Source of the DNA: Escherichia phage ECO71P1
Direction: 5' to 3' (one strand)
DNA length: 64,000 bases
Sequence record: OP172789
The position numbers and the translations under genes were made by a program. Positions 12,968 through 51,887 of this stretch are shown here, in pieces (the stretch's first letter is position 1; each line of letters begins with the position of its first letter). The notes beneath the pieces were generated by a model. It did not search any database and was not told the origin of the DNA. It saw nothing but the letters and a program-made list of their open reading frames with translations.

Positions 12968-14151
12968 TGAACATTCCAGAATTTAATAATGAGCCAGTGA
13001 TTCAGTTCAACGCGCAACAGATTGATGCCATCGAAAAGGCCGTTGCATGGTACAAGCGATTGCAGGACGGTAAAACGACGAAGCGCGTGTTTTTCATCGC
13101 TGGCTATGCAGGAACAGGTAAAACCTCTATTGCGCGTGAGATTGTGCGCCGTTGTGTCGGTGAGTACGGTGCCATTTATATTGCGCCGACCGGAAAGGCA
13201 GCCAGCCGATTGAAGCAGAAAGGGTGTCGTGGCGCGAAGACACTTCACCAGTTCATCTATAACGTGCGCGGCGTAAATGACGACAATGAGCCAATATTTT
13301 CGAGAAAGTCAAAGCTGGACGAAAAGCCGCATCTTGTAGTCCTTGATGAAGCTTCAATGGTTGGCGAGTGGGATACAGAGCGCCTTCTTGATCACCGCAT
13401 CCCTGTGCTGGCATTAGGCGACATTGGACAAGTCCCTCCGGTAAAAGCCGCCGCCTACTTTACTGAAGATGCCGTTGACGTACTGTTAACCGAAATCATG
13501 CGGCAAGGGAAAGAGTCCAACATAATCCGCGCTTCCTTCTTCGTGCGACAGGGCAACCGACTTCCTCCGCGTGAATACGATGACGTCAAGGTGTTGGCTG
13601 AATCGCCGCGCGTTACCGCACTGAAGAAATTCATGGGCGAAGATGATCAGATTATTTGTTCATATAACAGCACCAAAGATAAATGGAATTCATTATTGCG
13701 GCAAGTGAGCGGACGTATAACGCCAATGCCAGGAATCGGTGAGAAAGTTATTTGCACATTCAACCAACACGGTCCAGGATTCTGTAATGGCGAGCAAGGG
13801 ATTGTTATTAGTTATGAGCCAGTACCGGACTTTGAAAGGGATGAAGATGAGTCCAATGAAATAATGTATGTAAATTTGCGCTCGCTTACCGATGGCAAAG
13901 ATATAAAGGTCAAGATAAATCCTCTTTCCTTCTCTACTGATCAGGAAGTGCGCAAAGAGGCTCAACGCGCTGTTGGAGGAATGGACTATGGCTATGTCAT
14001 AACGGTGCACAAATCGCAAGGCAGCGAGTGGGATAATGTGTGCGTTCTGGAAGAAATCTTGCGCGGCGTTCCGTATGCCAAGATGATGTACACAGCCATC
14101 ACCCGTGCTAAGAAGAATCTGACTGTGTACCGTGATTTGAAAGCGCGTTAA
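12967..14151 (+). CDS. SF1 DNA helicase, Dda/RecD-like
   Basis: Walker A GYAGTGKTS, motif II VLDEASMV, C-terminal SQGSEWD motif. Confidence 0.8.
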   Translation: MNIPEFNNEPVIQFNAQQIDAIEKAVAWYKRLQDGKTTKRVFFIAGYAGTGKTSIAREIVRRCVGEYGAIYIAPTGKAASRLKQKGCRGAKTLHQFIYNVRGVNDDNEPIFSRKSKLDEKPHLVVLDEASMVGEWDTERLLDHRIPVLALGDIGQVPPVKAAAYFTEDAVDVLLTEIMRQGKESNIIRASFFVRQGNRLPPREYDDVKVLAESPRVTALKKFMGEDDQIICSYNSTKDKWNSLLRQVSGRITPMPGIGEKVICTFNQHGPGFCNGEQGIVISYEPVPDFERDEDESNEIMYVNLRSLTDGKDIKVKINPLSFSTDQEVRKEAQRAVGGMDYGYVITVHKSQGSEWDNVCVLEEILRGVPYAKMMYTAITRAKKNLTVYRDLKAR

Positions 14152-14225
14152 TGTTGACGTAAATTTACGAAAAATAAAACTGAAAATCAGTTTAATTAAA
14201 GTGGCATTGCCGCCAGAGTTTTTAG

Positions 14226-14254
14226 TTGCTACTGGCGGCGACTGAAGGCATAAT
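14226..14254 (+). promoter_or_regulatory. sigma70-like promoter (-35 TTGCTA, 17 bp, -10 CATAAT) with inverted repeat GCCGCCAG/CTGGCGGC bracketing the -35
   Basis: Hexamers and dyad read directly. Confidence 0.4.
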
Positions 14255-14310
14255 TAAGTTATCCCAAACGGGGAATATAAAATAAACTAATTTATTTAAG
14301 GACTGTGAAT

Positions 14311-15150
14311 ATGGCCGAAGCAATCAAAGTATTATCTAAAGAAGAAAAACAAGCAGCTGCAGCAGAACGTCGTCGCGTGGCTGAAGAAAAACGCCTGGCT
14401 AAAAAGAAAGAAGCCGAAGAAAAACGCCAGAAGCGTGAGCAGGAAAAACAAGCCAAGCGTGAAGAAGCTGCACTGAAACGCAAGCAGGCCGCTGATGAGA
14501 AAGCACAGAAACGTGCTGAAGAAGCAGCGAAGAAAGCCAAAGAGCGTGCAGAAAAAGCTGCTGCTAAGAAAGCAGAGCGTGAAGCCGCTAAAGCAGCAAA
14601 AGAAATCGAAAAGGCAAAGGCTAAAGAAGAAGCCAAGCGCCTGAAAGCTGAACAAGCTGCTGCTAAGAAAGCAGAGCGTGATCAAGCCCGTGCTGCAGCG
14701 AAGGCCGAAAAAGAGAAGGCCAAAGAAGAAGCTAAAGCGAAACGCAAGGCAGAGCGTGAAGCTGCTAAGATTGCGGCTAAAGAAGCTGCAGAAAAGCAGA
14801 AAGAACAGCGTAAGAAAGAAGCTGAAGAACGTCGCAAAGCCATCGCAGAACGTAAGGCTGCTAAAAAGGCAAACGGTCAGCGTCGTGCAAAAGCAACCCA
14901 CTTCATCTACACTGGCAATGGCCTGAGCCAGCCGCAAGAGCATTCCACCCGTGGACGCGTTCTGGCGGCGATCAAAGAAGGCGAAGTTGGCGTGGCGCAG
15001 TCTATCGATGAGCTGGGCGAAAAAGTTAAAGATCAACTGTTTGGCGCTTCCGTTCGCTCCTACCTGAGCAAGCTGGAAGAGATGGGCCACATCGAGTTTG
15101 TCGATGTTGAATCCAACGAAGATGCCGAAGACGGTGATCAAGCGGAATAA
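14311..15150 (+). CDS. Lys/Ala/Glu/Arg-rich low-complexity helical protein with C-terminal globular domain and acidic tail
   Basis: About 200 aa of KAEKAAAKKAEREA-type repeats (DNA-level direct repeats of gctgctaagaaagcagagcgtga), then ~70-aa non-repetitive domain ending EDAEDGDQAE; terminator follows. Confidence 0.7.
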   Translation: MAEAIKVLSKEEKQAAAAERRRVAEEKRLAKKKEAEEKRQKREQEKQAKREEAALKRKQAADEKAQKRAEEAAKKAKERAEKAAAKKAEREAAKAAKEIEKAKAKEEAKRLKAEQAAAKKAERDQARAAAKAEKEKAKEEAKAKRKAEREAAKIAAKEAAEKQKEQRKKEAEERRKAIAERKAAKKANGQRRAKATHFIYTGNGLSQPQEHSTRGRVLAAIKEGEVGVAQSIDELGEKVKDQLFGASVRSYLSKLEEMGHIEFVDVESNEDAEDGDQAE

Positions 15151-15175
15151 CCTTAGGACGGTTATGCAGCGGTAA

Positions 15176-15206
15176 TTGACCCACACTTGTTGTGGGTCTT
15201 TTTTCA
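15176..15206 (+). terminator. rho-independent terminator (GACCCACA/TGTGGGTC stem plus TTTTTT)
   Basis: Perfect 8-bp stem, 5-nt loop, T6 tract. Confidence 0.7.
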
Positions 15207-15229
15207 TCTGTACTAAATAAAATGACTTG

Positions 15230-15258
15230 TTGCTGTAAAATAATTTAGCTATTATACT
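15230..15258 (+). promoter_or_regulatory. sigma70-like promoter (-35 TTGCTG, 17 bp, -10 TATACT)
   Basis: Hexamers read directly upstream of 15283 gene. Confidence 0.5.
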
Positions 15259-15282
15259 TATCATATCACCCACAAAGGACAA

Positions 15283-16278
15283 ATGAACATGAAACAACCT
15301 GTAATGATTATCGGCGGCGGACTGGCAGGACTTATCACCGCTTGTCACTTCCCGAACTCTGTTGTGTACGAAGCAGGGGAACGAGCGCAACAGCACAAGG
15401 CGCTGCTACGCTTTCGCAGCGAAGAAGTAAGCCGTATTACCGGAATCCCTTTTAAGGCTGTGACAGTTGACAAGGCTGTGTATTTTCGCGGCCACTACTA
15501 CCACGACCATTGCCCAATCAACCTTGCCAATATGTATTCCATGAAGGTCACCAATCAATTTGGCAGCCGTTCAATCATGAAGCTTAAGACTGCAACGCGT
15601 TATATTGCGCCTGATGACTTTTATGATCAGCTTGTCGACAAACTGGGTGACCGAATATTCTTTAATACTCCGGTTGATACTCTTTGCGGCTATAGCGAGA
15701 CGCCAATCATCAACACGTCGCCGCTGCCAGTCATGATGAAGCTGGCTGGGATTGATCAAAAGCTTGATTTCTCATTTGATAAAGCAAACATTCGTGTTTA
15801 CCGCTTTAAGATTAAACGTAAGTGTGATTTGTATCAGACAATTTACTTCCCTGACTACTCCGTCAGAACTTACCGCGCATCAATTACTGGTGACACGCTT
15901 ATCATTGAAACAATTCCTTTGGTCAGCGTGAGTGAAGCTGCAGTTGAAGCCGCTGGCGGCATCACTCGTTACCGTGACATGAAGCTGCGCGCAGAAGTCG
16001 ACGAAGTGTTGACAGCCTTTGGCCTCTCATGGAGCGACATCGCTCTTGAAGAAGTTGAAAAGGTCGACCAGAAATATGGCAAGATTGTCGACATTCCGAA
16101 AGACTTGCGACACGCCCTACTCCTGCAGCTGACTATGGATTTGAACGTGTTCAGTGTCGGTCGATTTGCTACCTGGCGCAACATTTTGCTTGATGACGTT
16201 GCCCATGACCTTGTTGAAGTTGAAAAACTCATCAAAGCAAATAACTATCAAAAATTTGCTTATATTGCTAATAAATAA
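15283..16278 (+). CDS. FAD/NAD(P)-binding Rossmann-fold oxidoreductase (flavoprotein-like)
   Basis: N-terminal dinucleotide-binding motif VMIIGGGLAGL...E; 331 aa; exact family unresolved. Confidence 0.55.
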   Translation: MNMKQPVMIIGGGLAGLITACHFPNSVVYEAGERAQQHKALLRFRSEEVSRITGIPFKAVTVDKAVYFRGHYYHDHCPINLANMYSMKVTNQFGSRSIMKLKTATRYIAPDDFYDQLVDKLGDRIFFNTPVDTLCGYSETPIINTSPLPVMMKLAGIDQKLDFSFDKANIRVYRFKIKRKCDLYQTIYFPDYSVRTYRASITGDTLIIETIPLVSVSEAAVEAAGGITRYRDMKLRAEVDEVLTAFGLSWSDIALEEVEKVDQKYGKIVDIPKDLRHALLLQLTMDLNVFSVGRFATWRNILLDDVAHDLVEVEKLIKANNYQKFAYIANK

Positions 16279-16343: not shown

Positions 16344-16790
16344 ATGAAACGAATCACTGGAATCGCGCTTGCCGCTACTGCTATTCTCGGCACCATGTAT
16401 ATGGAAGCAACTGAAGCTGCCATCCGCACTTCCGATTCAGTCGCTGTTTACGATTGCGAAGCGATGGACGGTAAGACCGCAGCAACGACTGGTGCGAAGA
16501 TTACCACTTACATCGGTGTGAATGAGCAAGAAGGTCTGAATATTCAGATTCAGGGATTCACAGGGAAAGGTGCCAACCGTACTCCGTGGATGCAACGTTT
16601 CACTTTCGTCCAGCCTCGTTCAACTGGCGGCTTTATCAATCTGATTGGTGAAAACCGTTCTGGTGCAGAAATCTTTACATCAATGAGTTCTAATAATGAA
16701 CCAAAGAAAAGTTTTCAGTTGCTTTATAACGCACAATTCGTTTATCATTGCACCTTCTCTGGTGATCAGCAACTAGTGAATTACCGTTAA
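16344..16790 (+). CDS. hypothetical exported protein (N-terminal signal-peptide-like segment, two Cys)
   Basis: MKRITGIALAATAILGTMYMEATEAA hydrophobic N-terminus; good RBS. Confidence 0.5.
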   Translation: MKRITGIALAATAILGTMYMEATEAAIRTSDSVAVYDCEAMDGKTAATTGAKITTYIGVNEQEGLNIQIQGFTGKGANRTPWMQRFTFVQPRSTGGFINLIGENRSGAEIFTSMSSNNEPKKSFQLLYNAQFVYHCTFSGDQQLVNYR

Positions 16791-19434: not shown

Positions 19435-19986
19435 ATGCCACACTTTAAAATTGAACAAATCGCCCTGTCAATTCCAGATGCTCAGCGTGCACAGGATTTT
19501 CTGGCTAAAATCGGCCTGACAGAATGGTTCCATGATCATGTTGTTGCTACTGGTCGCGTATTTGAAAATGACGAGTTTAAAGGTCGTCGCGACGATTGCA
19601 CCAACGAAGCTGACTTGCGATTCAACTATCAGGCTGGCAACGGCACCGATGGCGGCGCTGGTAAGCCTCTTGAGCTTGAAATCCTTGACTACACAATGGG
19701 TTGCAACTGGATCAACGAAAACATCGACATGCTTGATGCGCACGATAATCAGGTCAGCCATCTTGGCATGCATGTGACTGCCGCTGAACTTGCTGAATGG
19801 CGTAAGTTCTTTAAAGAAGAAGGCATTCAGGTTGCGCAGGAAGTCGTAACTGACTCTCACACCAACCCAAATATTGCTGGTCAGCGTCGTTACAACTATG
19901 TGATCTTTGATACGCGTGAAATCATCGGTGTCGACCTTAAGTTCATTGTGCGGTTGAATCAAGACGGTACTCCGTACACTGCATAA
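19435..19986 (+). CDS. VOC (glyoxalase/bleomycin-resistance/dioxygenase)-like protein, tentative
   Basis: Size and N-terminal pattern reminiscent of VOC fold; weak assignment. Confidence 0.35.
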   Translation: MPHFKIEQIALSIPDAQRAQDFLAKIGLTEWFHDHVVATGRVFENDEFKGRRDDCTNEADLRFNYQAGNGTDGGAGKPLELEILDYTMGCNWINENIDMLDAHDNQVSHLGMHVTAAELAEWRKFFKEEGIQVAQEVVTDSHTNPNIAGQRRYNYVIFDTREIIGVDLKFIVRLNQDGTPYTA

Positions 19987-26360: not shown

Positions 26361-27221
26361 ATGTCTAAGAAAGAAACTACCGAAGTTGCAGTGAAAAACA
26401 CCCAGATGTCCGCTATGGCTGATTTTGTCGATATGACCGATTTTGGCGCTGGTTTTGAAGGTGCCGATGCCGACGCTTATGCCATTCCTTTTATCGTCGT
26501 ACTGCAAAAGATGTCTCCGATGGTCGACGAAGATGATCCAAAACACGTTCCTGGCGCAAAAGCTGGCATGTTGTACAACACCGTTACTGGTGAGTTGTAT
26601 GACGGCAAGAAAGGCGTGCAGATCATCCCTTGCGCATTCAAACGCACCTTCATCCTTTGGGGCGGTCGCGAGTCCGACGATAAAGGCTTTAAAGGTGAAT
26701 TCACCAAAGAGCACGTTGATGCAGAAGTCGCGGCAGGCCGCGCTGTTGAAATCAACGGTAAGGTATTCGTGCCAGACGAAAACGGCAAAGTGCACGAGAA
26801 GAAATCACCTTACTACGCAGATACACGTAACCACTTTGTGATCCTGTTAAACGAAGAGACTGGTGAATTTGGTAGCGCAATGCTGTCTCTGACTTCTTCC
26901 ATGATCAAGCCGTCTCGCATGCTGATGACCGCTCTGCAGCAGAAGAAAGTTCAGACTCCGCAGGGCCTGAAAACTCCGCCGACCTTCATGAACATCGTTC
27001 GCATGGGTACTGCGTCTCAGTCCAAAGATGGCAACACCTGGTCAGTTCTGAAGTTTGAGCTGGAAGGTCTGGTGCAGGATAAAGGTCTGTATGAAGTCGC
27101 CAAAGCATTCCACAACGACGTAGTTGGCGGCAACGTTAACATCGACCGCAGCAAGCAGGAAGAAGCAAGCGGTGCCGCTGGTCCTGTCAATGAAACTCCG
27201 ACCGACGCAGAAGAGTTTTAA
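26361..27221 (+). CDS. candidate single-stranded DNA-binding/annealing protein (acidic C-terminal tail ending in Phe)
   Basis: C-terminus ...ETPTDAEEF resembles acidic F-terminated tails of SSBs (T7 gp2.5, bacterial SSB); location in replication block; inference. Confidence 0.4.
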   Translation: MSKKETTEVAVKNTQMSAMADFVDMTDFGAGFEGADADAYAIPFIVVLQKMSPMVDEDDPKHVPGAKAGMLYNTVTGELYDGKKGVQIIPCAFKRTFILWGGRESDDKGFKGEFTKEHVDAEVAAGRAVEINGKVFVPDENGKVHEKKSPYYADTRNHFVILLNEETGEFGSAMLSLTSSMIKPSRMLMTALQQKKVQTPQGLKTPPTFMNIVRMGTASQSKDGNTWSVLKFELEGLVQDKGLYEVAKAFHNDVVGGNVNIDRSKQEEASGAAGPVNETPTDAEEF

Positions 27222-49848: not shown

Positions 49849-50487
49849 TTAACGAGTCAATTGTACAATGGTATAAGTGGAAGACTGGACGCTTGGGCCG
49901 GAAAGGGCAATAGTCGTCGGGTCAATCACAATACCGCCTGGGATGGCAACCATGCCAGTTGGCAATGAGCCAGTATAGGCGATAATTGCACCAATAGGCA
50001 AGTTGTTCGGGTTGTTACCGCTGGAAATGCCTTTAGGTACATAAGCAAGCAGGTCGCCATAGTTAAGCGTCTGCGGACTGGTGCTTGGGTTGAATACTTC
50101 AACTACGAGGCCCGTGCACATATCATAGAACTCGCCTTCGCTATATTGAGGCAGAACCATGCTGGCACCCAAAGGACCAGTAGAGTTGCCATACAGCGCG
50201 TAACGCTTGCTATTGCCGAGGATGCCGTAGTAGTTAGTGCCGCCCAGCTCAACTTCAAAGTCCTGCGCGCCCAAAGTTTTGGTTTGACCAGTACCCATTA
50301 AGGATACGTCAGTCTTAAAACCGAACACACGGCTGATGGCGTTTACGTTTGCGCCTTCGTTAGCGTTGGCAATTCGGCCTGGCTTCCCACGCTGTGGGCC
50401 GTCGCGAACGATGTCGCCAGGAAAGCCAGTTGTATATTGACGGCCTACACTAGTTTGGAAAGTCATGTTTATTCCCCTTTCAACCAA
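49849..50487 (-). CDS. head decoration/auxiliary capsid protein candidate
   Basis: Between scaffold-protease and major capsid genes. Confidence 0.4.
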   Translation of the reverse strand: MVERGINMTFQTSVGRQYTTGFPGDIVRDGPQRGKPGRIANANEGANVNAISRVFGFKTDVSLMGTGQTKTLGAQDFEVELGGTNYYGILGNSKRYALYGNSTGPLGASMVLPQYSEGEFYDMCTGLVVEVFNPSTSPQTLNYGDLLAYVPKGISSGNNPNNLPIGAIIAYTGSLPTGMVAIPGGIVIDPTTIALSGPSVQSSTYTIVQLTR

Positions 50488-51887
50488 GCTTCAAATGCTT
50501 CGTCAGTTGCTGCAGAATCCGCAGCGGCCTTTTGTTTTGCGACTACACGCTGTTTTTGACCGTGTTCAACGCCGCGCAGATAATTATCCACCACGTCAAA
50601 CTCAGCACCATCAACGCACTTCAAGCCTAACTTTTTAGCGCCATATTTCGCTACGGACTTGGAGTCCATAGTTGCATGATCAAAGGCACCAACAACTTTA
50701 GACAGGCGCTGGTAGAGGCTATTCTTACGAGCAGAATCAGCGTAGAAAGCAGCAACTGCTGAATCAGATGCCATTGAGTGTTCCCCTTTTGCTGGACCTG
50801 GCGACGCTTTCGCCGCTTTTGTCGGTTTGTCATCTTTTTCGACCGAAGCCCCCTTTACGTTGCTGTTTTGCAGGCCGCTAACCACATCTTCAGCTTTGTC
50901 GCAAGGTGATACATCTTCAGCCTTGACTTCAACTTCTTCGTCTTTGACTTCGGCTTCAACTTCTTCTTCATCACCTACCGCGCCACCTTTAAGTTTTGCA
51001 ATAAGTGCTTCGATTTGGCTGATCAGTTGCGGAAGCTCGCCGCCAGCGTGAGATTCAGTTTCAACTTCAAACTTCTCTTCACCTTCTGGAGTCTCTTCAG
51101 CTTCTGCTTTAACTTCTGGATCAACCATCACTTCTTCACGTTCTTCGGTTGAATCCTTCTCTTCTGCTTTCACTTCAACTTCGTCCTGATGAGCAGCTTC
51201 GGTGCTCTCTTCATTCAGAAATTGTTCGAGCGCAGGGATCAGTGATTTCAGCTGTTCAACAGCATTATCACGCGCTTTACCTTTTAACGGTTTTGGCATG
51301 TCTAAATCCTCGTTGGATGGTGTTACAGTCGTCAAACAAAGATGGTCAAAGCAACGACCATCCAGCACCCGTGCACCTGGTACTCGACCAACGTCCACGA
51401 GAGCAATGTGGTTGCCGCGAAGAGTTGTCTGTACCACTTCATACGGCTGCCCGTCAAACTCTCCAGACTGTATGATGAATTCACAGTCATAGCCCAAAGA
51501 CAAGTCAACCTTTCCAGAATCGATGGCCTTCTTCAGACGACGGCTAAAAACTTTAAGGTCGCCGCGCATCCATGGCTTGTCATAATAAACATTGCCAGTT
51601 AGAACGCCATCAACGCCATACTCTTCGGGTGCTGTGTTATCCTCATCACCTTCGAATCCAGAAAGCATTTCGTGATTGTCGATGAAAGGGATATTTTTGA
51701 ATGAATCTATCGCTTCGGGGTCTTTCACCGCTGACTCTGGGCGATAAACTTTTACGATGCGATTCGGATCACCATCAAGTCCAACCTGACCTGCAGAATA
51801 ATCAAAAATGCCAAATGACGAAATGGGACAACCCACAATCGTCAAGAATCCATTTTTGTCAATTTCGCGTGCCGTTTGCATTCGCAT
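50469..51887 (-). CDS. prohead protease-scaffold fusion protein candidate
   Basis: N-terminal ~200-aa globular domain followed by a long Glu/Lys-rich repetitive helical region (EVEVKAEEK ...) typical of scaffolds; immediately upstream of capsid genes. Confidence 0.55.
   Translation of the reverse strand: MRMQTAREIDKNGFLTIVGCPISSFGIFDYSAGQVGLDGDPNRIVKVYRPESAVKDPEAIDSFKNIPFIDNHEMLSGFEGDEDNTAPEEYGVDGVLTGNVYYDKPWMRGDLKVFSRRLKKAIDSGKVDLSLGYDCEFIIQSGEFDGQPYEVVQTTLRGNHIALVDVGRVPGARVLDGRCFDHLCLTTVTPSNEDLDMPKPLKGKARDNAVEQLKSLIPALEQFLNEESTEAAHQDEVEVKAEEKDSTEEREEVMVDPEVKAEAEETPEGEEKFEVETESHAGGELPQLISQIEALIAKLKGGAVGDEEEVEAEVKDEEVEVKAEDVSPCDKAEDVVSGLQNSNVKGASVEKDDKPTKAAKASPGPAKGEHSMASDSAVAAFYADSARKNSLYQRLSKVVGAFDHATMDSKSVAKYGAKKLGLKCVDGAEFDVVDNYLRGVEHGQKQRVVAKQKAAADSAATDEAFEAWLKGE

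Follow-up and report, generated by a model that had tools for sequence, protein, structure and literature searches.

The gene at positions 14311-15150 of the window (the whole 64 000-nucleotide stretch of Escherichia phage ECO71P1 DNA that was analysed) encodes a 279-residue protein in which a predicted long charged helix with a conserved basic stripe precedes a predicted winged-helix-like domain and an acidic tail. It may be an abundant, histone-like DNA-coating protein that is carried into virions with the phage DNA, a reading that is preferred here tentatively and at somewhat less than an even chance. A DNA-coating or nucleoid-type role had been one of several candidates in a preliminary description of this DNA; the predicted winged helix with its invariant polar residues, the stripe, the codon usage and the mass spectrometry of virions now favour it indirectly. 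The gene belongs to the conserved core of a large lineage (Wifcevirus, Pbunavirus, Carpasinavirus, Myosmarvirus and relatives) which includes, in Pbunavirus, phages that are among the Pseudomonas phages most used therapeutically. Despite capsid-level codon optimization and abundance in virions, its product carries only the labels 'TolA', 'structural protein' and 'hypothetical'.

Gene, transcription signals and family

The gene and its surrounding signals are as follows.

14311-15150, + strand: coding sequence, 279 amino acids plus stop, ATG start (from the list of open reading frames, the 840-nt orthologues and PHROG 4765)
14298-14302, + strand: ribosome-binding site AAGGA, 8 nt before the ATG (direct reading)
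14226-14254, + strand: sigma-70-like promoter match TTGCTA-17-CATAAT (9 of 12 consensus positions)
14209-14239, + strand: perfect 8-bp inverted repeat GCCGCCAG-15 nt-CTGGCGGC, between the stop codon of the Dda helicase gene and the gene
14551-14732, + strand: the sole real internal DNA repeat, a 99-nt (33-codon) unit in 1.8 copies with 77% identity (Tandem Repeats Finder)
15178-15205, + strand: intrinsic terminator GACCCACA-CTTGT-TGTGGGTC followed by TTTTTTC, an 8-bp stem and T run (stem-loop 15178-15198)

The window is Wifcevirus DNA with 97-99.6% identity to FEC19, ECML-117 and WFC, and the same 840-nt coding sequence is annotated in FEC19, Bas99, Bas101, vB_Eco4M-7 and WFC. As the preliminary description had stated, the gene sits in the replication block: the operon runs in the order Dda helicase, the gene for the 279-residue protein, ThyX, PNK, DNA polymerase and ligase. 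Synteny with the Dda helicase and nucleotide-metabolism genes is observed in Wifcevirus, Pbunavirus, Carpasinavirus and Myosmarvirus.

The promoter match, which is a match to the consensus only, ends 57 nt 5' of the ATG. Equivalents are found in Serratia phage MTx (TTGCCT-17-GATAAT, 58 nt 5' of the orthologue start) and Xanthomonas phage Carpasina (TTGCCG-17-AATAAT, 50 nt 5' of the orthologue start). The strong terminator 3' of the gene is also annotated as such in the WFC record, and MTx and E217 have equivalent terminators 3' of their orthologues. The position of the promoter match and of the terminator thus appears to be kept across genera, including distant relatives, and the gene appears to form a transcription unit of its own, separate from that of Dda, in agreement with an earlier assignment of its own promoter and terminator.

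The loop of the inverted repeat contains the -35 hexamer of the promoter match. The repeat is unique in the window, with none expected from shuffled sequences, and in MTx and E217 the corresponding intergenic site also carries a hairpin, of unrelated sequence. The repeat may act as a hairpin that closes the upstream transcript at its 3' end, or as an operator. The octamer CTGGCGGC itself occurs 13 times (1.7 expected), but was rejected as a signal because its occurrences are mostly sense-strand Leu-Ala-Ala codons. A search of Rfam identified no RNA family in the gene region.

The protein matches PHROG 4765, a family of unknown function, over its full length (E = 6.6e-84, 282.8 bits; residues 1-279 against profile positions 14-271 of 294). 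An exhaustive HMMER search of 1.84 billion representatives produced only 28 homologues, all of identical architecture, so that no informative domain fusions are available. A homologue search with the full-length query produced eight homologues; a word-indexed search with the C-terminal 99 residues, which include the C-terminal 80 singled out earlier for a homology search, produced only four. Neither Pfam (E <= 0.1) nor NCBIfam gave a usable family match for the full protein.

Six Wifcevirus orthologues are all 840 nt long, and their polymorphic codons comprise 30 synonymous changes against two that alter an amino acid; the gene is under strong purifying selection. In view of this equal length and codon pattern, the suggestion that internal repeats make the gene recombination-prone was rejected. 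The repeats themselves had been described as near-perfect, but Tandem Repeats Finder gives a single 33-residue duplication only, and the other direct repeats in the gene are 14-35 nt long with 66-94% identity. The repetitive look is compositional bias and not a repeat array.

Helix, C-terminal domain and acidic tail

Three regions of the protein can be distinguished.

14338-14865, + strand: residues 10-185, one predicted continuous alpha-helix, K/A/E/R-rich, about 26 nm long (AlphaFold2)
14866-15102, + strand: residues 186-264, conserved C-terminal domain
15103-15147, + strand: residues 265-279, acidic tail DVESNEDAEDGDQAE, predicted to be disordered (pLDDT below 50)

AlphaFold2 predicts residues 10-185 as a single helix (pLDDT 85-98; A 30%, K+R 36%, D+E 21%) with a small alpha/beta domain after it. 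The first 195 residues (A 30%, K 25%, E 20%, R 11%) have a net charge of about +29 and include only 11 large hydrophobic residues. Pairs of opposite charge at i/i+3 and i/i+4 number 74, against 58 +/- 6 in shuffled sequences (z = 2.7). The sequence features of the single alpha-helix (ER/K) class, namely a long E/K/R helix, an excess of ion pairs and no hydrophobic heptad seam, are all present in the predicted helix, and composition, ion-pair excess, the AlphaFold2 model and periodicity bear out the preliminary view of the N-terminal 185 residues as highly charged and single-alpha-helix-like.

Lysine and arginine recur in the helix with a period of 3.65-3.7 residues (spectral power 3.2, compared with a 95th percentile of 1.8 in shuffles), which places a basic stripe along it. 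Hendecad positions 0, 3, 7 and 10 hold 42 K/R and two D/E among 64 residues, whereas the remaining positions hold 23 K/R and 38 D/E among 112. The K/R period is shared by 22 of 24 family members, in 20 of which it is significant, and the stripe is thus conserved although the helix sequence itself is not; the length of the helix ranges from 77 to 184 residues across the family. Spectral analysis detected no significant apolar periodicity in the window protein, and a classical coiled coil, for which a prediction had been proposed, is thus not supported in this protein. Some relatives show an apolar 3.7-residue periodicity in the helix, and the protein may form a dimer or trimer through an Ala-rich hendecad seam of the kind seen in these relatives.

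The C-terminal domain contains the motifs RRxKATH, PQxxSxRG and LYGxSVRS[YF]LSKLEExGH, and residues 196-262 are of ordinary composition. Residues 197-264 are predicted to adopt a winged-helix-like fold with a three-stranded sheet: the predicted order of elements (strand, helix 1, strand, helix 2, helix 3, strand) contains the series helix 1, strand, helix 2, turn, helix 3, strand that characterizes the wHTH topology. Six polar residues (four Arg/Lys, one Gln and one Ser) are invariant among the 28 family members. The invariant Arg249 and Lys254 lie on helix 3, in the position of the recognition helix of winged-helix proteins, and the invariant Ser212 and Arg214 lie at the start of helix 1; this conservation does no more than suggest that helix 3 contacts DNA in the major groove. 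None of the 28 members gave an above-threshold match to curated families of wHTH DNA-binding proteins, and the sub-threshold Pfam matches, which were in register, were restricted to one member each (HTH_24, E = 0.26; RPA_C, 0.24; PBP2, 0.079; HTH_6, 0.17). Foldseek found nothing significant in the PDB and only the protein's own family in BFVD.

Residues 263-279 have a net charge of -8, and most relatives carry an acidic tail of 2-42 residues with a net charge of 0 to -18. The intact C-terminal peptide has been observed by mass spectrometry in vB_Eco4M-7. The shift in composition, the AlphaFold2 model and the low pLDDT of the tail all agree with the earlier division of this region into a distinct domain and an acidic tail. 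The overall charge of the protein is not conserved (+18 here, -4 in E217 and -23 in one relative), since the acidic tails vary.

Expression, virion content and proposed function

Codon usage points to very high expression. Among 53 genes of FEC19 this gene has the highest fraction of host-optimal codons (0.747; major capsid protein 0.746, tail sheath 0.644), with 25 of 25 Arg codons being CGY and nine of ten Leu codons CTG. In the window gene the fraction is 0.755, compared with 0.615 expected from amino-acid composition (z = 5.1), and the excess extends over the helix and the C-terminal domain alike. In E217 the orthologue shows adaptation to Pseudomonas instead (Arg CGY 96%, Leu CTG 100%, Lys AAG 89%, Ala GCC 80%), while the same measures for neighbouring E217 genes are 35-71%.

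Published mass spectrometry of CsCl-purified vB_Eco4M-7 virions assigned 422 PSMs to the protein (area 3.1e9; rank 5 of 33 by score), compared with 333 for the capsid protein and 559 for the portal. The same data contain other abundant proteins from genes outside the virion structural cluster (a glyoxalase-like protein, a Pam3_Gp34-like protein and a helicase), and carry-over of abundant proteins or of nucleoprotein is thus possible. In ECML-117 virions only two peptides of the orthologue were detected. The orthologue is not listed among the 31 proteins of DNA-free SCUT-S1 ghost particles, where the neighbouring Dda helicase is listed; this absence fits a DNA-bound cargo. The KTN6/KT28 paper contains no virion proteome, and the 'gp66' of a Gabija preprint, considered as the 14-1 orthologue, was discarded as it refers to phage D3. 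In 14-1 the corresponding gene is ORF66 (NC_011703, about 50389-51273), and in Pa193 the corresponding product is gp84.

If the protein does coat DNA, the winged-helix domain would anchor it there, with Arg249 and Lys254 in the position of the recognition helix, Ser212 and Arg214 opening helix 1 and the RRxKATH arm preceding the anchoring domain. The 26 nm helix would lie with its K/R stripe on the phosphates of the backbone, or in the space between adjacent duplexes, and neutralize charge there. The acidic tail could fold back on the basic stripe until displaced by DNA, or could recruit a partner; fold-back and partner recruitment are the ways in which the tails of HMGB1, T7 gp2.5 and SSB work. 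Protein sitting on replicating DNA would be co-packaged with it, which would explain its presence in virion preparations. The coated nucleic acid would most likely be the phage's own double-stranded DNA.

Known scaffolds such as P22 gp8, which ends in a small C-terminal helix-turn-helix, are elongated, helical and charged, and this likeness favours a different function, that of a dedicated virion component (internal head, ejection or scaffold-like) in which the helix is a rod or ruler, the C-terminal domain docks on a virion protein and any binding of nucleic acid is incidental. Its rank in the vB_Eco4M-7 virions, codon optimization equal to that of the capsid protein and the annotation of Pbunavirus orthologues as 'putative structural protein' are also in its favour. 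However, the gene is part of the replication operon, has a sigma-70-like promoter in front of it and is well separated from the head and tail genes, and a helix that varies by more than a factor of two in length across the family would make a strange ruler, since the phages are of similar size. The protein is neither modelled in the E217 and Pa193 virion structures nor mentioned in the main text of the cryo-EM papers, which give the scaffold role to another protein, Pa193 gp24, and its absence from the list of SCUT-S1 ghost proteins also argues against a virion component, which is considered unlikely. An adaptor of the replication or transcription machinery has a still smaller, but appreciable, chance of being correct. 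Here the winged helix and tail would bind a partner, for example Dda helicase, the polymerase or RNA polymerase of the host, while the helix would serve as a spacer or keep the protein soluble and the virion signal would be carry-over. The conserved adjacency to Dda is consistent with this, as are the acidic tails through which SSB, T7 gp2.5 and T4 gp32 recruit partners. Codon optimization at the level of a capsid protein and high abundance would nevertheless be unusual for an adaptor, transcription is separate from that of Dda, no second domain is conserved at the N-terminus and the conserved basic stripe requires an acidic or polyanionic partner over 26 nm. The lack of a conserved N-terminal domain that could be held at a distance also makes the earlier suggestion of a pure molecular spacer unlikely, and the suggestion of a mimic that titrates a host protein found no support.

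Binding to RNA or the ribosome, with modulation of translation, is very improbable. The C-terminal domain would act at the tunnel exit like the insert domain of MetAP2, Ebp1 and Arx1, with the Lys-rich helix lying on rRNA, and MetAP2 and Ebp1 do contain Lys-rich segments. However, the Foldseek matches are not significant (E at least 0.67), the matched domains share 5-18% sequence identity, the neighbouring genes belong to DNA metabolism and co-purification with virions fits DNA better than ribosomes. That this insert domain, a ribosome contact, is the closest structural match is nonetheless a point against DNA coating. Further points against coating are the overall charge, which is not conserved in the family, the possible carry-over into the virion preparations and the silence of the E217 and Pa193 cryo-EM papers in their main text. 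Homology to TolA, the envelope-spanning Tol-Pal component named in several GenBank records, can be virtually dismissed. Wifcevirus records call the gene product 'TolA protein' or 'hypothetical protein', and all that favours the former is a K/A/E-rich helical composition like that of TolA domain II; the label probably arose from low-complexity BLAST matches to this composition. The C-terminal domain PF06519 is absent according to Pfam, whereas E. coli TolA scores 2e-38 in the same library; the best BLASTP match to E. coli TolA, with compositional adjustment, has E = 0.22 over a 28-residue low-complexity stretch, and NCBIfam gives no TolA match. Judged by composition, the N-terminus (MAEAIKVLSKEEK; MAEAIKVLSKEEKQ) lacks a hydrophobic anchor: the 11 large hydrophobic residues among the first 195 stand alone or two together at most. 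The 'TolA-like' character noted in the preliminary description is therefore one of composition only, and the public records that call it 'TolA protein' are in error and should drop the name.

Wifcevirus phages resist restriction systems in an unexplained way and replicate unusually fast, and a DNA-coating protein would be a candidate for both. It is conceivable, as a long shot, that the protein binds to phage DNA as this replicates, enters the capsid with it and is injected as a sheath on the genome, where it shields the incoming and replicating DNA from restriction enzymes and other DNA-targeting defences. Such a sheath would be the 'genome protection mechanism' that is missing for Wifcevirus phages, and a virion-borne, non-enzymatic DNA coat made of a winged helix and a basic-stripe helix would be a new anti-restriction strategy, common to the therapeutic Pbunavirus phages.

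Comparison with known systems

Of the named families, that of the 37-kDa nucleoid-associated protein YejK/NdpA (NA37, PF04245; PDB entry 9be2) alone came up repeatedly in sequence searches. Positions 214-264 of NA37 are matched by five of the 28 members in constant register, with a sub-threshold best E value of 0.0046 and a best score of 16.8 bits against the Pfam cut-off of 24.6. YejK (9be2_A) is also the top hit of the PDB profile search (E = 0.26), and hhalign gives a probability of 54% with E. coli YejK as the target, which rises only to 60% with a YejK alignment, over 39-41 columns; this alignment is shallow, the homologues listed being all at least 81% identical and the 29 aligned showing 80-96% identity. 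The match spans helix 1 to helix 2 only and omits the most conserved helix, SVRSYLSKLEE, and the overall architecture differs from that of YejK. The MetAP2/Ebp1/Arx1 domain, the closest match by structure, is an insertion in a pita-bread enzyme fold, whereas the phage domain is free-standing.

Like the ER/K helices of myosin VI/X and caldesmon, the phage helix has excess ion pairs and no hydrophobic seam and is predicted as an isolated straight helix. It differs in its alanine content (30%) and net charge (+27 to +29, ER/K helices being near neutral), in the sorting of its charges into a basic stripe with an 11/3 period and, as no N-terminal domain is conserved, in linking nothing to the C-terminal domain. 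Domain II of E. coli TolA has a similar K/A/E/D-rich helical composition, but the phage protein lacks a membrane anchor and the TolA C-terminal domain and does not align significantly with TolA. Linker histones H1/H5 likewise join a winged-helix globular domain to a long stretch rich in Lys and Ala; in the phage protein the two come in the opposite order, and its charged segment is helical and 21% acidic, whereas that of H1 is disordered and K/A/P-rich. The matches that Foldseek gave to linker-histone globular domains were not significant (1uss, E = 3.6, probability 0.09; 7dbp_K, E = 9.7), and Pfam gave no linker-histone match.

Abundant histone-like DNA-coating proteins include phi29 p6, which has an acidic C-terminus, SPO1 TF1, bacterial HU/H-NS, chlamydial Hc1 and the Lys/Ala-tailed HU of actinobacteria. 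The protein described here resembles them in its very high expression, its early or replication-module gene, its basic Lys/Ala-rich segments and the proposed stoichiometric coating of DNA that is not site-specific. Neither sequence nor fold relates it to the HU, H-NS, p6 or Hc1 families, and its DNA binding is putative. In place of their folds it combines a predicted winged helix, a 176-residue basic-stripe helix and an acidic tail, which, if it does coat DNA, would be a new architecture among phage chromatin-like proteins.

Genomic context and transcription signals

The open reading frame lies exactly where it was first noted, with an ATG at 14311, a stop codon at 15148–15150 and 279 encoded residues, and is preceded by an AAGGA ribosome-binding site 8 nt 5′ of the ATG. 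A GTG at window position 14305, two codons further 5′, lengthens the mechanically called frame to 281 residues; the ATG at 14311 is the start that agrees with the spacing to the ribosome-binding site and with every database annotation. An antisense frame of 354 residues (window 14332–15396, − strand) was rejected as a gene and is an artefact of the low-complexity sense strand, being an F/S/L/C-rich mirror of its GAA/GCT/AAA-rich sequence. No Rfam family matches the region. A megablast search with window 14100–15300 identified 28 phage genomes at 97–99.6% identity, all of them E. coli or Shigella myoviruses of the genus Wifcevirus (e.g. FEC19, ECML-117, WFC/WFH, vB_Eco4M-7 and the BASEL phages Bas98–101), and Wifcevirus records label the gene 'TolA protein' or 'hypothetical protein'.

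On the map of FEC19 the gene is the third in an operon for replication and nucleotide metabolism that runs rightward from a divergent region facing the primase genes, so its original placement in the replication block is correct. The order is:

gp30, Dda-like helicase, the present gene, 331-residue protein, 148-residue protein, ThyX, PNK, FabG-like reductase, DNA polymerase, helicases, ligase

The order Dda, present gene, ∼320-residue PHROG-4828 protein and ThyX is kept in Pbunavirus, Carpasinavirus and Myosmarvirus. The downstream neighbor (15283–16278, +; 331 residues) matches PHROG 4828 (E = 1e-150) and no Pfam family, carries an N-terminal GGGLAG dinucleotide-binding motif and always stands between the present gene and ThyX in Wifcevirus, Pbunavirus, Carpasina and MTx. 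It is labelled 'UDP-galactopyranose mutase' in some records and could be a flavoenzyme that modifies nucleotides or DNA. The 148-residue frame in the middle of the operon (16344–16790, +) has a signal-peptide-like N-terminus (MKRITGIALAATAILGTMY...) and neither a Pfam nor a PHROG match.

Three features flank the gene:

14209–14239: perfect inverted repeat GCCGCCAG-15-CTGGCGGC, bracketing the −35 hexamer of the putative promoter; unique in the window
14226–14254, +: sigma-70-like promoter match TTGCTA-17-CATAAT, ending 57 nt 5′ of the ATG
15178–15198, +: strong intrinsic terminator, 8 bp stem and T run, annotated in WFC

Equivalent promoter matches precede the orthologues in MTx (TTGCCT-17-GATAAT, 58 nt 5′) and Carpasina (TTGCCG-17-AATAAT, 50 nt 5′), and terminators follow those in MTx and E217. 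Because the promoter match recurs at a like distance in two distant relatives and terminators follow orthologues as well, the gene is very probably an independent unit driven by host RNA polymerase, in keeping with the promoter and terminator of its own proposed in the preliminary description. MTx and E217 have hairpins of unrelated sequence at the position equivalent to the inverted repeat, which could be the 3′ hairpin of the upstream transcript or an operator. The octamer CTGGCGGC occurs 13 times in the whole window (e.g. at 14962, 15953, 16624, 32329 and 41248) where dinucleotide shuffles predict 1.7; the majority are in sense orientation within genes and encode Leu-Ala-Ala or Leu-Ala-Gly, and the excess is probably a codon or amino-acid effect and not a signal.

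Charged helix and C-terminal domain

Residues 1–195 consist of 30% Ala, 25% Lys, 20% Glu and 11% Arg (net charge +29) with just 11 large hydrophobic residues, the composition of residues 196–262 is ordinary and residues 263–279 are acidic (net charge −8). There are more opposite-charge pairs at i/i+3 and i/i+4 than in shuffled sequences (74 versus 58 ± 6). AlphaFold2, using an 11-sequence alignment, predicts residues 10–185 to be a single unbroken helix (pLDDT 85–98) of ∼26 nm at 1.5 Å per residue, followed by a small α/β domain and a disordered tail. The charged composition and helix of the preliminary description are thus upheld, whereas its 'near-perfect repeats' were overstated: Tandem Repeats Finder detects one 99 nt unit (1.8 copies, 77% identity, window 14551–14732), and the remaining direct repeats in the gene are short and imperfect.

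Lysine and arginine residues in the helix show a strong 3.7-residue periodicity (spectral power 3.2 versus a 95th-percentile shuffle maximum of 1.8; 3.3 in the E217 orthologue). Hendecad positions 0, 3, 7 and 10 contain 42 K/R and just two D/E in 64 residues, compared with 23 K/R and 38 D/E in 112 residues at the other seven positions; about one third of the surface of the predicted helix is therefore a continuous, nearly acid-free basic stripe. The K/R peak at 3.65–3.7 recurs in 22 of 24 family members, significantly in 20, despite their non-alignable sequences. Apolar residues form no significant seam in the helix of the window protein, so a classical coiled coil is unsupported; since some relatives have an apolar 3.7-residue period, an Ala-based hendecad oligomer could still form.

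All six Wifcevirus orthologues compared (97–99% DNA identity) are 840 nt long, and small indels between genomes fall in the intergenic region 3′ of the gene; this absence of length polymorphism does not bear out the idea that its repeats are recombination-prone. The six differ by 30 synonymous-only polymorphic codons (20 in the helix) versus two amino-acid changes, K162Q and E270D; strong purifying selection therefore acts on the low-complexity helix. Between genera the helix differs in length and the protein in total charge (+18 for the window protein, −4 for that of E217 and −23 for one relative), the latter because of the differing tails.

A tblastn search with the C-terminal 90 residues found orthologues in 356 phage records, of which 293 are from Pseudomonas phages, overwhelmingly Pbunavirus or PB1-like (48 of 48 Pseudomonas records among the matches listed, e.g. 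E217, JG024 and 14-1); the remainder are Serratia, Pantoea, Burkholderia, Xanthomonas, Luteibacter and Vibrio phages. The protein matches PHROG 4765 (6.6e-84), and when 1.84 billion representative proteins were scanned exhaustively with HMMER, just 28 clusters emerged, with a single common architecture. The N-terminal end varies and in several members is His-rich; next come a K/A/E/R helix, 77–184 residues long and not conserved in sequence, a conserved domain marked by G-x-RR-x-KATH, PQ-x-x-S-x-RG and LYG-x-SVRS[YF]LSKLEE-x-GH and, in most cases, an acidic tail. The His-rich start (family members P0008–P0011, P0013 and P0023–P0025; e.g. MSHGHHHHTQDAGHTHG) precedes the charged helix, is absent from Wifcevirus and Pbunavirus proteins and may bind metal.

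Modelled alone, the C-terminal domain comprises a strand, helix 1, a strand, helices 2 and 3 and a final strand (pLDDT ∼90 over the fold, pTM 0.69). Foldseek searches gave nothing significant against the PDB and, against viral models, matches confined to the protein's own family. Residues Arg192, Gln209, Ser212, Arg214, Arg249, Lys254 and Leu255 are invariant in all 28 members; in the model, Arg249 and Lys254 lie on helix 3, which stands where a winged helix has its recognition helix, and we take the helix 3 motif SVRSYLSKLEExGH[IL] to resemble helix 3 of MarR/ArsR-type regulators. Sequence-profile searches gave only sub-threshold matches, with NA37/YejK, a nucleoid-associated protein family, as the sole recurring one: NA37 positions 214–264 are matched in constant register by five of 28 members (best E 0.0046, 16.8 bits versus a cut-off of 24.6), and YejK is the top PDB profile match (E = 0.26); hhalign gives a probability of 54–60%. 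This similarity is a lead, not a finding.

Expression level and detection in purified virions

The fraction of E. coli-optimal codons, 0.747, is the highest among 53 FEC19 genes (major capsid protein 0.746, tail sheath 0.644), with CGT/CGC for 25 of 25 Arg and CTG for nine of ten Leu codons. For the gene in the window the fraction is 0.755, where its amino-acid composition and the codon choice across the genome would predict 0.615 (z = 5.1); helix and C-terminal domain both show the excess. The codons of the E217 orthologue instead suit Pseudomonas (Lys AAG 89%, Ala GCC 80%, Arg CGY 96%, Leu CTG 100%), and its neighbor genes are far lower on the preferred codons. The gene has adapted to its host independently in two genera, which indicates that the protein is made in capsid-like amounts.

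In CsCl-purified vB_Eco4M-7, the orthologous 'TolA protein' (vB_Eco4M-7_83) ranked fifth of 33 proteins (score 1197.6, 422 PSMs, area 3.1e9; capsid protein 333, portal 559 and sheath 358 PSMs), and its confident peptides, the intact C-terminal peptide among them, all derive from the C-terminal domain (Necel et al., 2020; PMC7048862). Trypsin cuts the helix into pieces below detectable size. Just two peptides of the orthologue were found in ECML-117 purified likewise, and the proteins detected also included other abundant ones whose genes lie away from the virion structural-gene cluster, namely a glyoxalase-like protein, a Pam3_Gp34-like protein and a helicase (PMC7048862). The first two are likewise high in codon optimality in FEC19. 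The Pam3_Gp34-like protein (gp45; window 26361–27221, +; 286 residues; PF23977, 4e-86) ranks third in the genome (0.716), represents a second abundant product of the replication block and has a counterpart, vB_Eco4M-7_70, with 12 peptides in CsCl-purified virions. The glyoxalase/bleomycin-resistance-like protein (gp38; window 19435–19986, +; weak Pfam Glyoxalase_4 match) is fourth (0.657), and its counterpart in the virion data is vB_Eco4M-7_77.

Possible function and related systems

The high rank in vB_Eco4M-7 stands beside the two ECML-117 peptides. For 'ghost' particles obtained with LiCl/DNase from the Pbunavirus SCUT-S1, the 31 proteins listed include the Dda helicase and not the orthologue, and the main texts of the E217 and Pa193 cryo-EM papers do not mention the orthologue. 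This pattern fits a protein travelling with DNA and co-banding nucleoprotein contamination alike. A true structural or internal virion protein is unlikely, a replisome or transcription adaptor quite unlikely and an RNA or ribosome binder highly improbable.

We tentatively favor, at somewhat less than even confidence, an abundant nucleic-acid-coating protein, most likely acting on phage dsDNA. The winged-helix-like domain would anchor it on DNA, the basic stripe would neutralize backbone charge along or between duplexes and the acidic tail would serve in autoinhibition or in recruitment; the protein would then reach virions because it sits on packaged DNA. Expression level, build, conservation and detection by mass spectrometry are shown here, and binding to DNA and the mode of action are inferred. 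The BASEL preprint describes, in its section 15, Wifcevirus phages as unaffected by every defence and restriction system tested apart from EcoP1_I, with no genome protection mechanism known; it also notes impairment by K-12 cryptic prophages and reports of exceptionally fast replication, with an infection cycle said to take 3–5 min. A co-packaged DNA sheath is very unlikely to account for the restriction insensitivity; if true, it would be a testable candidate for it.

The identity implied by the label 'TolA protein' is refuted, as every defining feature of TolA membership fails. The protein superficially resembles a reversed linker histone, of which it is not a member; closest to its proposed working are the phage and bacterial histone-like proteins, and it belongs to none of those families.
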